In this document: piece by piece, positions 1,137-63,575 of the stretch
How positions within the stretch are numbered: position 1 is the stretch's first letter
Layout: each line of letters starts with the position of its first letter
NCBI GenBank assembly: GCA_038087875.1
Contig: CM075988.1
Location: 22,446,001-22,510,000, forward strand
Origin: Malacoraja senta
Taxonomy: Eukaryota
Reading direction: 5' to 3'
Length of the DNA stretch: 64,000 nucleotides
Notes under the pieces: generated by a model
Told to the model about the DNA's origin: nothing
The model's input: the letters and a program-made list of their open reading frames with translations, nothing else
Database searches by the model: none
Program-made: the position numbers and the translations under genes

Positions 1137-1439
1137 GTGTGAAGAAGGGTTTCGACCTGAAACATCACCTATTCCTTTTCTCCAGAGATGCTGCCTGACG
1201 TGCTGAGTTACCCCAGCTTTTTGTGTCTTTCTTTGGCTTAAAGCAGCATCTGCAGCTCCTCCATTTTGTCTGCTCCCATGTGAAATCTCCTCAAGGTATG
1301 CTTACTTTAAAATAAGTTCTCCTCCTTTCTCCATCGAGGATTCTGCAACACTCTCTCTTGCTGCACCCCCTCTCTGATTCCTCCGGCTCTGCGACCACGT
1401 TTTGACCCAGACTCGCTACTGCAGCCACCTGCTTCTTAA

Positions 1440-1473
1440 GGTCTGAAGAAGGGTCTCGACCCGAAACGTCACC
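1440..1473 (+). ncRNA. Minimal type I hammerhead-ribozyme-like motif (representative copy)
   Basis: GGT-CTGAAGA-A-GGGT(CTCG)ACCC-GAAA-CGTC^ACC: CUGANGA and GAAA cores, stem II, palindromic ACGU in place of stem III, 3-bp stem I. Activity untested. Confidence 0.55.
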
Positions 1474-3104
1474 CATTCCTTTTCTCCAGGGATGCCGCCT
1501 GACCCGCTGTGTGACTCCAGCATTTTGCGTGTGTCTTCCATCTTAACAACTCGTCTAATATCAGCTGCTAATTCCTCCCCTGGAGAGCTCATTGCATTTT
1601 TGCACTGTAGCCAAATCAACAAATTTTGCACTGCTCAGTTTGAGTGGAGAATCTTCTTCAAGAACTAAGTGCTGGAACCCTGTTTTGTTAAAAACAAAAC
1701 ATATTCAGCAGGGGCTTTTTGTTCTGTTGGCCACGGGTTAGATAGTTTTAAAGTTTGAATGTATTTACGTGCTAGCATCTTGGAGCATGTAAATCCCAAC
1801 TGATCCTAGAATGGACTATTCGCCCCGCATTATTTAAAAAAATGTTCTTCCCTTTCCTCCCCTCACAAGGGAATCGTGTCTTCAAGTACAAAACATCATC
1901 TGTTCTTCTCGTGTGAATTTGGTCGGTGAGACTGAGTTGATTTTGTTATTGCCACATCAAGAGTGTTCCAGCATTCCTAGCGGCTGCCCTGGTGCTAAAT
2001 CCAATTGTAACATTAACATCAGGAATGCATCAAAGACCTCCTGTATGCCTTTGCTTTACAGGCCGATAACAACCCTTTTCTCTCTCTCTCCTCCGATCTG
2101 CCATCATTATAACCACCATTTGAAAAGGTTTGGAGAATTCTTTCATACAGGTCCCTGTGCATCCAGGGGATTAATAATCAGATCCTGTTGATCCCAGAGC
2201 ACGTATAACGGAGAACAGTACAGCACAGTAACAGGTTCTTTGGCCCACAATGTCTGTGTCAAACACGATGCCAAGTTAAACTAATCTCCTCTGTCTGCAC
2301 ATGATACATATCCTTCCATTGCCTATATAACCTTTTAAATGCCACTATTGTATCTGCCATCATCACTATCCCTGACAGCGCATTCCAGACACCCACCACT
2401 CTGTGTAAAAAAACTTGCCCTGTACAACTTTGGGCCATTCGCCCTCTAGTATTTGATACTTCCACTCTGGTAAAAATGTTCTGACTGTCTACCCTATCTA
2501 TGTCTCTCTATATGCTTATAATTCTATATGCTTCTATTGTTATGCTTCCCTCAACCAGAGAAAATCCAAGTTTGTCCAACCTATCCTTGTAGCTAAACCC
2601 GTCTAATCCAACCAGCATTCTGGTAAACCTGCACCCTTTCCAAAGCCCCCACATCCTGTAATGGGATGACAAGAACTGCACACAATATTCCAAATATAGC
2701 CTCGCCAAAGTTTATAAAGCTGCAAAATCACTTCTTGACTCTTATATCTCTGTAGAAAATTCAATTTCGTTCAAACCAAGCCGTTTGAATGACAATAAAA
2801 GGCATTCTATTCTATTCTATATTCAATGCCTCGACAGATGAAGGCAAACATTTTTACGTCTTCTTTACCTTTATTCTATGGCAGGGAAAAGTGCCTGGGA
2901 GCTTGGTGAGGGGCCTCGTATTGACCATTACCTTCTAAGAGGTAGGCCAAATCAGTCGAGTGAAGCCCAGTAGCAGGTTAACCACCACAGTCCACAGGGT
3001 ATCGGCACCCCAGGCCAAGCTCAACCAAGTACTGTCCCACCAACGGACACGAGTCCAGAGCCCAACCAGCCACAGTCAGCGGTAGAGAGGAAGATGGAAG
3101 GGGA

Positions 3105-3305
3105 AAAAAGCAGAATGGAGCAGTCACTGGCTGTGGCTGAAGAGAAAAGATGCTGTCTGGGCTGCCACGTGACCATCTAGAGGCTAACCATAAGACACAC
3201 ACCCAGGGCTGATCACCCTGCGGCGGGCCTGCCTCGACTGAGCGTGTCTTGTGATAAAAGGCCGAAACACCCAGTGACGTTGAGGTACACAACTGAAGAT
3301 GTGTC
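3105..3305 (+). mobile_element. Probable 3' end of a restriction-like-endonuclease (Hero-type) non-LTR element
   Basis: AEWSSHWLWLKRKDAVW* C-terminal motif, then gctgatcaccc...gataaaaggccgaaacacccagtgac 3' UTR-like sequence; recognised from memory only. Confidence 0.45.
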
Positions 3306-3799
3306 TGCTGCGTTTCCTAATTAACAACAGAAAAGTATCTTAAAAACAAAGTGCTGGAATAACTCACCTAGTGGTCACCCCCAAGAATATTGGGTGTCAG
3401 TTGTGGTGAAGAAACTTAGGGATTGTAACATCCAGTCCTACTAATCAATATTTAGTTGTGTTGCCACTTTCAGGGAGCTATAAACTTCGACCCCAAATTC
3501 TGGGGGTAATGGCAACACCTCCTTGCCCAAGTCCTGCACATAAAGTAGAAGTCTGTCAGGGATTGGAACTTTAACGTGGCTTTTCCAATCCAGTTCATTT
3601 TTAAGTTATGTCGAAAAAAGGAACTGCAGAGTTGGTTTACACAAAAAGGACACAAAGTGCTGGAGTAACTCAGCCAGTCAAGCAGCATCTCTGGAGAACA
3701 TGGAGAGAATCCTAACCTATTCATGTTCACCAGGGATGCTGCCTGACCTGCCGAGTTATTCCAGCACTTTGTTTTTAAGTTACTTTTCTGTTGTTAATT

Positions 3800-4100
3800 C
3801 AGAAATACAGCAGATACTTTGCAGATATGAAAAGCATCGACATGAGGCGTTGCCTCAAGGCAGCGGCATATATTATCAAACATCTCCAACATAAAGGCCA
3901 TGCCCCCTTCTCGCTGCTACCATCAGGTAGGAGGAATAGAAGCCTGCGGTCCCATGCAACCAGGTTCAGGGACAGCTCCTTTCCCACATCGATCGGGTTC
4001 TTGAATCAACCTGCACAACCCTAATCCTACCTTGACAACGCAACACTATGGACCTCCTCTCGCACTATCATCGAGTTGTTTTCTTAATTGTGTTTTGAAC
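3800..4100 (+). mobile_element. Rex1-type LINE 3' fragment
   Basis: CLKAAAYIIK...FSLLPSGRRNRSL...RFRDSSFP. Confidence 0.7.
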
Positions 4101-60912: not shown

Positions 60913-61036
60913 CTGTGGACAACAAGGAACAGGAAACCTGTGACAGGCAAGTTGTTGGAGGGACAAGAGACACAAGCAGACTCCTTCATCTCCGCAATGA
61001 TAGTGTTGCATTTTAAACAGCAGCAAATCTCTAATA

Positions 61037-61587
61037 ATGTGTGTATTATGTGTGTGTGTGTGTGTGTGTGTGTGTGCGTGTATATATATATATATATATA
61101 TATATATATATATATATATATATATATATATATATATATATATATGTGTGTGCGTGTGTGTATATATATATATATATATGTATGTGTGTATATATGTATA
61201 TATACATGTGTATATATATGTGTGTGTGTGTACATGTATGCGTGTACATGCGTATGTGTATACATATATATATACACACACATATATATATATATACACA
61301 CACACACATATATATATATATACATATATATATATATATACACATATATATACACATATATACACATATATATACATATACATATAGAAGGTACACAAAA
61401 ATGCTGGAGAAACTCAGCGGGTGCAGCAGCATCTATGGAGTGAAGGAAATAGGCAACGTTTCGGGTCGAAACCCTTCTTCAGACCTATATATATATATAT
61501 ATATATATATATATATATATATATATATATATATATATATATATATATATATATATATATATATATATATATATATATATATATATA
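61037..61587. repeat. Compound (TG)n/(TA)n/(CA)n microsatellite interrupted by a Penelope-derived repeat (~61388-61486)
   Basis: Direct reading; pure (TA)n of about 100 bp at 61487-61587. Confidence 0.95.
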
Positions 61588-62280
61588 GTCATGTTTTCAT
61601 TGCGGGCAGGGTTCTGGAAGTGCAGTACCACACTGACTCCAATCTCCGAGTCCACTTTAGAACCACCATTTGGGGTGTGTACAGGAGCCACCACCAGACA
61701 TTTAAGAAAGAACTGCAGATGCCGGTAAAATCAAAGGTAGACACAAAATGCTGCAGAAACTCAGCGGGTGAGGCAGCATCAGACCCCAGACCAAAGGCTC
61801 CATCAGAAAGCAGGGTCTCGACACGAAACGTCACTCAATCCTTCTCTCCAGAGACGCTGCCTGTCCCGCTGAGTTACTCCAGCTTTTTTGTGTTTATCTT
61901 CAGCTCCATCAGGGACCAACCAGCTCCCAGCTCAGACACATAGCACAACCCGACCGCTTCCAAAACAAAAACTCACAGACGTGAAGTATTAAAAGCCTCC
62001 CTAAGTCAAGATTATTACAGCCCACCTGCCTCACAATGATACAGCATCTCCCACTGCCCCAGGTCCCATAGCAGAAGCGTCCACGTGGCGGGGCTGGAAA
62101 CTGGAAGTATCCTGAGGTAATTCTGCCACCACAATCATCTATTGCAACAAGTGATGGCTTCCACTGATTGTCGCCGGAAGCTCGCGTTCGTTTCAGGACG
62201 GACGATGACAGCGAGGTCAACATTTAAAACATGGAAGATGGACACGGAAGAAGAAGACGAGCCCAGTCAGGGATACAAAC

Positions 62281-62371
62281 CTGCAGCTGTAAATGTCGTT
62301 GATCTGAAAGTGTTTGTTGAAAGCAATGGCCTCGATGCTGTCGGTCAGTGGTCCATCCAGTACACGGATAC
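62281..62371 (-). CDS. PCSK7: Proprotein convertase subtilisin/kexin type 7, internal coding exon (91 bp)
   Basis: Minus strand reads tttccttccag|GT ATC CGT...TGC AG|gtttgt. Translates (G)[29 protein letters not shown](S), matching the PC7 catalytic domain; phase fits the next exon. Confidence 0.95.
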
Positions 62372-63575
62372 CTGGAAGGAAAGAACAATCCCGTCATGAG
62401 TTTACGTGATAGGAGCAGAATTAGGCCATTTGGCCCACGACGTCTACTCCACCATTCAATCATGGCTGATCCATCTTTCCCTCTCAACCCCATTCTCCCG
62501 CCTTCGTCCCATAACAATCAAGAAACTGACTATCTCCGCCTTGAAAATATCCATTGACGGCCTCTACTGCCTTCCGCGACAATGAATCGCATACATTTAC
62601 CACCCTCTGATTAAAGAAGTTCCTCCTAAAGGTATGTCCTTTTATTCTGAGGCTGTGGCCTCTGGTCCTAGACTCTCCCACTGGAGGAAATGAGTGGCAA
62701 AAAAACAGCACCAGGCAAACCTGGATGTGGAAGAGTCATGGACCTGAGGTATTAGCGCTGTTTGCCTCTCCACAGATGCTGCCTAACCCACTGAGTATCT
62801 CCAGCACTTTCGGTTTCTACTCCGGCATTGCGGCATCTGCAGAGTATTTTTGCTTTTCAATTACTGTTGATTTCACAACCACTTTTCTTCTGGAGAGGCT
62901 AAGCTTGAATAAACTCTGCAACAATTACCCAGGGCATTTGTCCAACTCTCTTGCCTTGAAGGTGTTCTGATGAAATGTCATCGACCTACAAGACACACTC
63001 TGTTTTTCCCTCCACAGGTGCTGTTCGACCTACTGAGTAACCCCAGAATTTTCAGAATTCATTTCCTGGCGAGAGGGGTAAAGTTTAAAGGAGATGCGTA
63101 CGGCAAGAACTAGAAGACATGGGTTTAAGACGAGAAAGGAAAGATTTAATAGGTACCCGACAGGCAACTTTTTCCCCACACAAAGGTTGGTGGGTATATG
63201 GAACAAGCTGCCAGAGGAAGTGAAAATGAAGAACTGCAGATGCTGGTTTGTACCAAAGACAGACACAAAGTGCTGGAGTAACTGTGGGTCAGGCAGCTTC
63301 TCTGGAGAAAATGGAGAGGTGATGTCTCGCATTAGAAAGAAGTCTTCATCATATCAGTCTGAAGGGTCCCAACCATAAACATCAACTCTCCATGTTCTAG
63401 TTGAAACAGGTACTATAACAACATTTAAAAGACACTTGGACTGGTCCATGGATAGGAAAGGATAAGGGGGATATGGTCCAATCGGCCGAATAGGACCAGC
63501 TCGGATGGGACATTGATCAACATGGCGAAGTTGTGATGAAAGGCCTGTTTCTGTGCTGTATGACTGTGACTGTGA

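Follow-up and report, generated by a model that had tools for sequence, protein, structure and literature searches.

Short copies of a putative Neptune-type Penelope terminal repeat with a minimal hammerhead motif in and around the PCSK7 gene of the skate Malacoraja senta

Hammerhead motifs have been described in the pseudo-long terminal repeats (pLTRs) of Neptune elements, together with dispersed copies that are truncated or lie on opposite strands (PMC4209133). Single and opposite-strand occurrences of such minimal hammerhead ribozymes (min-HHRs) have been ascribed in the same paper to truncated Penelope-like elements (PLEs), insertions of which can show an inverted head-to-head arrangement, palindromic junctions and target site duplications (TSDs) of 8-10 bp (PMC8557442, PMC3846280). 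PLE-derived retrozymes are also in print, including those of one chondrichthyan genome (PMC4209133; bioRxiv 10.64898/2026.07.22.740005). Here we report the analysis of a stretch of 64,000 nucleotides from Malacoraja senta (GenBank assembly GCA_038087875.1, contig CM075988.1, positions 22,446,001 to 22,510,000 of the forward strand), hereafter the window, which contains part of the PCSK7 gene and dozens of short copies of a hammerhead-bearing repeat. An earlier note, made from the sequence alone, had drawn attention to this repeat as a Penelope-derived mobile unit. Our literature search found nothing on this skate/ray repeat and no work joining Penelope, Neptune and skate; the cartilaginous-fish papers surveyed were without the term "hammerhead ribozyme", and the file searched from the supplement of PMC4209133 held no shark or skate min-HHR, while the supplements of earlier hammerhead surveys may list chondrichthyan cases.

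With a threshold of E<=1e-3, a profile hidden Markov model (HMM) built from window copies identified 62 copies of this repeat, termed the module, of which 34 are on the minus and 28 on the plus strand; the reversed window gave no match. These copies occupy 5,948 bases, or 9.3% of the window, which corresponds to a density of about one copy per kb, and a typical copy consists of the terminal 100-140 bases of a Penelope-type element. With one mismatch permitted, the core pattern matched 23 times in the window compared with 1.62 matches expected, and 0 of 100 shuffles reached 23. The motif was found at the sites for which it had been proposed, namely, 1443-1470, 8041-8068 and 52562-52589 on the plus strand and 8425-8452 on the minus strand, and its assignment to the minimal type I hammerheads stands, with the core order, the extra base, the G10.1-C11.1 pair and the palindrome all present. 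Exact CUGANGA...GAAANNUH cores around helix II are present in 12 copies, an extra unpaired A between A9 and G10.1 in 37 of 38 copies, and the G10.1-C11.1 pair in 30 of 38. The palindrome at 15.2-16.2 reads CG in 24 of 47 copies and CA or TG, the products of CpG decay, in 19 more; there is no helix III, stem II has 4 bp, and stem I is as short as had been stated, with 2 bp in most copies. The published descriptor, which demands a helix I of 3-7 bp, served for a scan that gave 8 hits, with at least 3 bp in stem I in 2 of them and 2 bp reached by 7, whereas 40 random sequences or shuffles gave none. Core, stem II and palindrome are all kept in only 4 of the 31 full-span motifs.

The PLE min-HHRs are thus the closest described motifs: core order, the extra base between A9 and G10.1, the G10.1-C11.1 pair, the palindromic 15.2-16.2 positions and the location in a pLTR are all shared, as is the occurrence of mostly single or opposite-strand copies from truncated elements (PMC4209133). 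The window copies differ in their helix II, of 4 bp as compared with 7-8 bp in the Schistosoma min-HHR (PMC4209133), and in their helix I, which usually has 2 bp, only 2 window copies passing the descriptor. A helix I of likewise 2 bp is found in a Drosophila virilis Penelope variant (PMC4209133). Another difference is the apparent copy number, which is far higher here than in coelacanth and Xenopus, for which 4,000-9,000 min-HHRs were counted (PMC4209133). In three sequencing runs from related species, the summed contig depth of the hammerhead (1444-1474) exceeded that of the unique flank (1568-1598) by 1.1-2.2 million-fold, a measure that is not a copy number; copy numbers given here are extrapolations. 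The 35 hammerhead starts counted per 64 kb are of the same order of magnitude as the depth-based figure, and a rough extrapolation leads to about a million module copies per genome. The density of copies is a genome-wide property and not specific to PCSK7. Scans for the hammerhead or the ends of the transposon described below gave 0 loci in metagenome contigs, 0 in viral contigs and 0 in prokaryote genomes; 6 viral loci returned by a 16-nt pattern were rejected as chance, only 15-24 nt being matched.

Judged by its sequence context, the module is probably the 3' terminal repeat (pLTR) of Neptune-clade PLEs. The link to Penelope and GIY-YIG made in the earlier note was confirmed: the minus-strand copies at 33567 and 20487 lie some 90 nt behind the end of a reading frame that matches the C-termini of GIY-YIG proteins (34 aa at 33763-33656 and a shorter one at 20647-20576, both on the minus strand), a pLTR thus being located downstream of an open reading frame (ORF) at both sites. 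Some of the proteins matched carry a reverse transcriptase (RT) besides GIY-YIG. A 45-aa query retrieved one protein, a skate gene model with an identical terminal sequence, and the last 59 residues of this model in turn retrieved 209 relatives. Among the 18 relatives scanned, the Pfam GIY-YIG domain was found just upstream in 10, one of them above the curated cut-off, and an RT was matched in 3, of which 2 carry it upstream in the same frame and 1 is an RT of the long interspersed nuclear element (LINE) type fused to the fragment. Several relatives of the 34-aa frame end possess the CX2-5CxxC linker, a feature of Neptune and Nematis (PMC8557442), and these GIY-YIG relatives together with the linker point to the pLTR of Neptune-type elements. 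The skate model itself (P0004, NCBI) is annotated as neuromedin-U receptor 1 of Rhinoraja longicauda, with its last 59 residues matching the Neptune GIY-YIG C-terminus, and this Neptune-like end probably reflects an error in the gene model or the exonisation of an element.

At least three different upstream families (A, C and D) end in the same module, which implies that it is a conserved part of several element families. The coding remains of Penelope in the window comprise the terminal 34 aa and a decayed piece of RT, and no full-length Penelope element was found within the window. The decayed Penelope-like RT fragment, at 22560-22024 on the minus strand, has no module adjoining. Beyond the tail of 30-40 nt that follows some modules, two units run on into a common sequence consisting of a 5' untranslated region (UTR) and a probable ORF start (1265-1438 and 52419-52535, from DNA alignment); the protein predicted from this ORF start has a weak match (32% over 22 aa) to one 893-aa relative. 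Partial tandems were observed at 1136-1545, 6758-7670, 20351-20853 and 52297-52665. The first of these has a 5' repeat at 1136-1264 (+), a module with tail and a core mutated at C3, followed by the UTR and ORF start at 1265-1438 (+) and by a tailless module at 1439-1545 (+), which has an intact motif at 1440-1473, a 3-bp stem I and a predicted cut after 1470. The unit at 52297-52665 (+) is similarly built from a truncated module with tail, the UTR and ORF start, an end of family D and a tailless module. At 20351-20853 (-), an inverted arm with tail and a truncated module are joined to the GIY-YIG C-terminus (20647-20576), a GT..AG segment (20576-20485) and a module, and at 33459-33763 (-) the GIY-YIG C-terminus (33763-33656) is followed by a GT..AG segment (33653-33565) and a module. 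In these respects the locus resembles the endonuclease-containing (EN+) elements of the Neptune clade, with which it shares the putative C-terminal GIY-YIG, the pLTR, partial tandems, an optional 30-40 nt tail at one end and a head-to-head inverted 5' copy with palindromic junction, the TSDs of those elements being about 8-12 bp (PMC8557442, PMC3846280). It differs from them in that the window copies are extremely truncated, most having 50-140 nt, and in that their 5' ends accumulate where the hammerhead begins.

The anatomy of the insertions speaks for retrotransposition. The five target duplications previously listed (16, 17, 11, 10 and 10 bp) proved exact, and TSDs of the copies range from 9 to 17 bp. 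Exact flanking repeats of at least 9 bp occur at 9 of 46 units as compared with 4.9% of 845 random intervals (p=3e-4), and at 11 of 46 versus 5.2% when 1 mismatch is permitted; a few of these 9 are due to internal matches or microsatellites, and in most units a TSD could not be recognised. One of the listed duplications, 6758/7655, had been taken to enclose a short solo copy. It encloses instead a 900-bp composite on the minus strand (6758-7670) in which three modules are combined with 190 nt of family C sequence from upstream in Penelope and with a DNA transposon; an inverted arm, a 5'-truncated module, the 190 nt of body and a module with tail follow each other within a single 16-bp TSD, and this unit is a complete textbook Penelope insertion.

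A feature absent from the earlier note is that 32 of the 62 copies belong to head-to-head inverted pairs. Among 24 pairs of close neighbours (within 120 nt), when about 2 would be expected at random, 16 are head-to-head, 4 tail-to-tail and 4 tandem (p=2e-5). The tail is present on one arm in 7 of the 16 head-to-head pairs, on neither in 9 and on both in none, and 14 of 30 single copies carry it. The two arms of a pair are 81.6% alike, compared with 76.4% for other copies (14 pairs with enough overlap, p=0.002), and only one pair has arms that are mutually best in the tree. The position of the junction varies from pair to pair, which indicates that each pair arose at insertion; a family of head-to-head units resembling miniature inverted-repeat transposable elements (MITEs) was ruled out, since all 16 junctions differ. 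Arms joined at the hammerhead start are seen at 17981-18213, 19260-19482 (12-bp TSD with 1 mismatch) and 33190-33403 (11-bp TSD with 1 mismatch), each with the tail on one arm, and at 57787-58011, a near-perfect hairpin, whereas the pair at 7468-7669 is joined at stem II. Further pairs are located at 3631-3772 (11-bp TSD, 3598/3772), 51149-51328 (17-bp TSD, tail on one arm) and 61700-61917 (tail on one arm), and the profile HMM delimited those at 11543-11679, 16492-16637, 27835-27979 and 53523-53669. Three pairs are accompanied by another copy: a 3' fragment at 30666-30973 (old and diverged; pair at 30798-30973), a module at 34979-35232 (pair at 35106-35232) and a module with tail at 43567-43874 (pair at 43714-43874). 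Contigs from the three related-species runs show the same tendency, 12 of the 15 joints listed being of opposite strands; these 15 are a small sample, as 1,112 further joints exist.

Taken together, a Neptune-type pLTR with a minimal hammerhead, whose short copies stem from target-primed reverse transcription broken off after some 100-140 bases, is probably the correct explanation. Of the two options offered in the earlier note, extreme 5' truncation, along with retrotransposition generating TSDs, is the one upheld by the insertion anatomy. The starting point is the module, which stands behind the GIY-YIG frame end in two of the copies and is common to no fewer than three upstream families. 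The element protein would nick the target, as we infer from Frangieh 2024, and the cDNA would begin at one of two sites, yielding copies with or without the 30-40 nt tail. Synthesis would usually halt at stem II or else at, or before, the start of the hammerhead, each of the two being a short palindrome, and the cDNA may then fold back or restart, producing head-to-head pairs and partial tandems within one duplication of 9-17 bp. The template was not cut at the hammerhead, because the copies retain what lies upstream of the cut site, and not one of the 62 begins there. In the source element, the motif would likely work only as a protein-assisted dimer, and the dispersed motifs would decay neutrally, buried in hairpins and passively transcribed with the host RNA with no measurable cleavage. 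A separate observation is that the tail carries an 8-nt complement of module positions 52-59, which pairs with them in one fold (e.g., 17984-18124, minus strand); in such a model, this complement could set the start sites of reverse transcription.

Several observations weigh against this explanation. Thirty-five copies extend to the first base of the hammerhead, and 27 of them go no further (about 23 independent events). In terms of what lies beyond, 8 of the 35 run on into Penelope sequence further upstream, 13 are fused to an inverted arm and 14 border on flanking DNA or another piece, these classes having been assigned by hand with four pairs counted twice. This boundary is sharper than expected from random truncation and could mean a dedicated short template, with the proviso that the HMM ends at the boundary by construction and that unrecognised upstream families could inflate the number of stops. 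In addition, the module exceeds the adjacent 5' UTR 500-650 fold in summed contig depth, a rough measure, and the tree of 45 copies of at least 70 nt, in which 5 of 42 branches are well supported, contains a clade of three solo copies (99/94 support) with a longer stem I and no ORF-linked member. The three members of this clade (31032-31181, 46243-46360 and 61385-61486) have an altered cleavage triplet, and G bases preceding the core lengthen their stem I. The remaining 3 of the 15 listed joints in related-species contigs are same-strand module joins, indicative of short tandems in those genomes. The analysis rests, moreover, on the window plus runs of related species rather than on a full-length element or a whole genome, and the RNA data are from one poly(A)-selected run of another, related species of which 6% was sampled.

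Several of these points would fit an alternative in which the module is a Penelope-dependent analogue of a short interspersed nuclear element (SINE), i.e., a short RNA starting at the first base of the hammerhead and copied in trans by the Neptune protein. We consider this unlikely, although it deserves a hearing. The RNA would start at an initiator-like site or at the 3' splice site of a pLTR intron, and the boundary may offer both: it reads YYANWYY, which we take to be an initiator-like sequence, and is also the AG of a pyrimidine-rich GT..AG segment that spans the distance between the ORF stop and the hammerhead start at 33653-33565 (89 nt) and 20576-20485 (92 nt), both on the minus strand. 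A short GT..AG segment ending exactly at the start of helix I is shared with D. virilis Penelope, where splicing was shown, whereas the 89-92 nt segment here is a sequence prediction from two copies (PMC2377424, PMC4209133); this coincidence of the end of the retained intron and the helix I start in D. virilis (PMC4209133) adds to the case, as do the stops of 27 of 35 copies at the boundary, several solo copies with a TSD within 0-7 nt of the core, the solo-only clade, the large excess of module over 5' UTR and upstream flanks of contigs and reads that are only 33-39% alike. Yet the boundary is also a short palindrome, and fold-back can account for 13 of the 27 stops. The other 27 of the 62 copies begin at scattered sites over the next 70 nt or so downstream, the bases between TSD and core vary among solo copies, and solo, paired and ORF-linked copies are intermixed in most clades. 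On positions 700-1600, 14,279 RNA reads were recorded, with depths on the hammerhead of 3,230 and 2,935 on the two strands, i.e., about equal, and with no pile-up of starts at 1441. Stopping of the RT with fold-back is favoured over a dedicated short template because the kinds of copies mix in the tree and the RNA shows no starts.

The earlier note had called the units retrozyme-like. Animal non-LTR retrozymes indeed share with them the lack of coding capacity, the derivation from a PLE pLTR, a type I hammerhead and dispersed monomers with TSDs (PMC7229834), and units that are non-coding, carry a type I motif, have TSDs of more than 4 bp and derive from PLEs agree with what is proposed in bioRxiv 10.64898/2026.07.22.740005. 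Retrozymes, however, are arranged in tandem, with complete hammerheads in successive units, and are expressed as monomeric linear and circular RNA (PMC7229834; bioRxiv 10.64898/2026.07.22.740005), being excised from tandem transcripts by paired hammerheads, circularised and re-inserted. Such units are head-to-tail with a complete hammerhead in at least 2 consecutive units, whereas those in the window occur singly or head-to-head and carry minimal motifs, most of them defective. The window contained neither a tandem array nor intact motifs that neighbour each other on the same strand, and no module array is among the 16 rows of the tandem repeat search (TRF). Two partial tandems with modules about 270-300 nt apart come nearest to the expected arrangement, but the upstream core is broken or missing in both; similarly, some same-strand joins occur in related genomes, but a single RNA read stands behind the three listed. 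The motifs are minimal rather than canonical, a canonical hammerhead having a helix III and contacts between loops 1 and 2, whereas helix III is missing here and helix I has 2 bp; in addition, 0 of 62 copies start at the cut site (model position 34-35). The copies do not qualify as retrozymes, and it is very improbable that the units spread in this way.

The core is better conserved than the rest of the module: 10 non-CpG columns are 90.6% conserved as compared with 84.1% for random sets (p=0.01), and loop II is less conserved than stem II (76% versus 87%). On this count the proposal of a hammerhead held up, but the expected covariation of its stems did not materialise, the score showing no excess over shuffles, of which 48 of 500 reach it. 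Compensatory helix changes were looked for in 20 decayed copies of one genome, a sample of low power, and 1 of 149 cells was changed on both sides, a value equalled by 221 of 500 shuffles. RNAalifold gave no consensus structure for 20 copies, the fold z-scores of five copies range from -0.96 to 0.52, and no hammerhead family was present among 54 Rfam matches at E<=5, all of them below the gathering score and mostly hairpin or microsatellite. With stem I mostly at 2 bp and the unconstrained N7 as conserved as the core (92%), the conserved 30 bases might be thought to act as a promoter, as a splice signal or as a protein-binding site, with a hammerhead fold that has no function, even in the source elements, and persists as a relic; catalytic mutants also left insertion unaffected (PMC11167929). 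The presence in the right order of the catalytic positions, the base after A9, the G10.1-C11.1 pair and the palindrome, the conservation of the core columns and the more variable loop II all speak against this, and the anole PLE motif cleaves once protein is added (PMC11167929), so that a relic of this kind is a very unlikely interpretation.

In terms of activity, min-HHRs were reported to show no cleavage as monomers and weak cleavage as dimers (PMC4209133), 1 of 9 Xenopus dimers cleaved (bioRxiv 10.64898/2026.07.22.740005), and cleavage by the PLE hammerhead was found to depend on protein; core mutations did not alter insertion, and RNA-seq data had no ends at this position (PMC11167929). 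For the window copies, the active dimer of intact motifs is predicted to lie 8-27 kcal/mol above the two-strand minimum at 37 C. The probability of stem II in a 250-nt context was 0-0.27 in all 8 copies folded, and paired copies form long hairpins.

These predictions bear on the suggestion that minus-strand copies may cleave the PCSK7 pre-mRNA. PCSK7 is encoded on the minus strand, and three exons in the window match Callorhinchus PCSK7 with canonical splice sites: 60915-60855, 53375-53234 and, as the last one found, approximately 47743-47641. No further exon was found downstream of 47641 (window positions 1-47640), which implies an intron of at least 47 kb. The statement that copies occur throughout the PCSK7 introns is thus correct for the 11 of 62 copies that lie between confirmed exons, whereas 6 are upstream of the first exon found and 45 are in the exon-free stretch of 47.6 kb. 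Of the intact cores, 9 are on the PCSK7 sense (minus) strand and 3 on the plus strand (p=0.15), giving no indication that cores on the sense strand are selected against. Two sense-strand motifs are fully intact (8452 and 61482), and 61482, in isolation, folds into the monomer frame, which might argue for cleavage or regulation of the pre-mRNA; the copy concerned (61385-61486) has the longest stem I of the intact motifs, of up to 6 bp, partly formed by the TA flank. Alternative folds nevertheless dominate in context, the closest sense-strand cores that keep the palindrome are some 3 kb apart, sense-strand cores are not depleted, and about one copy per kb is a genome-wide rather than gene-specific property. 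In the RNA run no pile-up of read starts or ends was found at the cut site 1470, the sole pile-up of ends being at 1033, inside a DNA transposon; with a threshold of one fifth of the local depth and a library that preserves ends poorly, this negative carries little weight. That the copies cleave the PCSK7 pre-mRNA is unlikely, the motif being undepleted on the sense strand, hidden by folding and free of RNA ends, and a cleaving or regulatory role of the sense-strand copies is the least credible of the readings considered here.

The transposon just mentioned is a non-autonomous MITE with terminal inverted repeats of about 33 bp, which we presume to be of the hAT or P type on the basis of its TSD length. 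Both of the only two copies in the window interrupt a hammerhead core within its first eight bases, and the 8-bp TSD of each corresponds to the core start: one at 765-1136 (372 bp; TSD 757-764/1137-1144), in the first bases of the module at 1136-1264, and another at 6903-7301 (399 bp; TSD 6895-6902/7302-7309), within the composite at 6758-7670. The MITE copies are 95% identical, whereas their host modules are 79% identical and their flanks differ, so that the two insertions look independent; as the window holds only 21 such target 8-mers, random insertion is implausible. Obligate targeting of hammerheads was not supported, since the flank depth in related genomes amounts to 2-3% (left) and at most 11-13% (right) of that of the interior, bounds that are soft because part of the right-flank depth is due to module-only contigs. 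This suggests that only a minority of MITE copies in related genomes sit in a hammerhead core, and there may be a preference for the core. Local hopping plus target preference could account for both sites. Dada transposons, by comparison, target RNA genes with TSDs of 6-7 bp, and the account of them makes no mention of hammerheads (PMC8869645). If the MITE does prefer the core, this would be a DNA transposon targeting the ribozyme of another mobile element.

The remaining copies are single modules or fragments. Solo modules with TSDs are those at 31032-31181 (-; tail, 10 bp, solo-only clade), 35520-35678 (+; tail, 10 bp), 46243-46360 (-; 11 bp, solo-only clade) and 60306-60458 (-; tail, 9 bp). 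Others are at 5247-5354 (+; core mutated), 5374-5472 (-; core intact, stem I of 1 bp), 8360-8455 (-; intact motif on the PCSK7 sense strand, 2-bp stem I) and 61385-61486 (-; in a TA microsatellite, intact motif, PCSK7 sense strand). Upstream sequence is retained at 8037-8150 (+; family D, intact motif, 2-bp stem I), 24030-24167 (+; family C, with tail), 29125-29212 (+; family C, internal deletion) and 47912-48001 (-; pyrimidine-rich). The module at 9121-9231 (-) follows an inverted tail remnant and has a mutated core, and that at 50596-50720 (-) has an 11-nt micro-inversion at its 5' end. There are 3' fragments at 6646-6701 (+) and, with tail, at 27497-27552 (-), three decayed fragments within 62766-63332 (62766-62813, +; 63006-63052, +; 63226-63332, -) and a weak inverted arm found by the profile HMM at 63352-63398 (+; E 0.01). 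Apart from the module, the window contains a near-intact LINE at 12190-16279, presumably of the CR1 type, with a 324-aa frame and, after it, frames for endonuclease and RT (712 and 406 aa) that a frameshift separates, and many short 3' ends of this type are scattered through the window. Young minisatellites were found at 54124-54292 (18-bp unit, 9.5 copies) and 52923-53040 (20-bp unit, 5.9 copies).

The repeat is thus best seen as ordinary, well-fitting Penelope insertion debris, newly seen in a cartilaginous fish. Its value lies in its scale, as the tens of insertions per gene constitute a record of the sites at which reverse transcription of Penelope begins, ends and folds back, relevant to how head-to-head copies and tails originate and to whether the hammerhead cut precedes copying; here it does not. 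A bolder and doubtful proposal is that skates and rays carry a Penelope-dependent SINE analogue of about a million copies, made from an RNA of 100-140 nt, and that a DNA transposon favours its hammerhead core as a safe landing site. If the SINE analogue were real, skate and ray genomes would be the richest known store of hammerhead motifs, and a dedicated short RNA would clearly exemplify a non-autonomous partner of Penelope that is dispersed rather than arranged in tandem.

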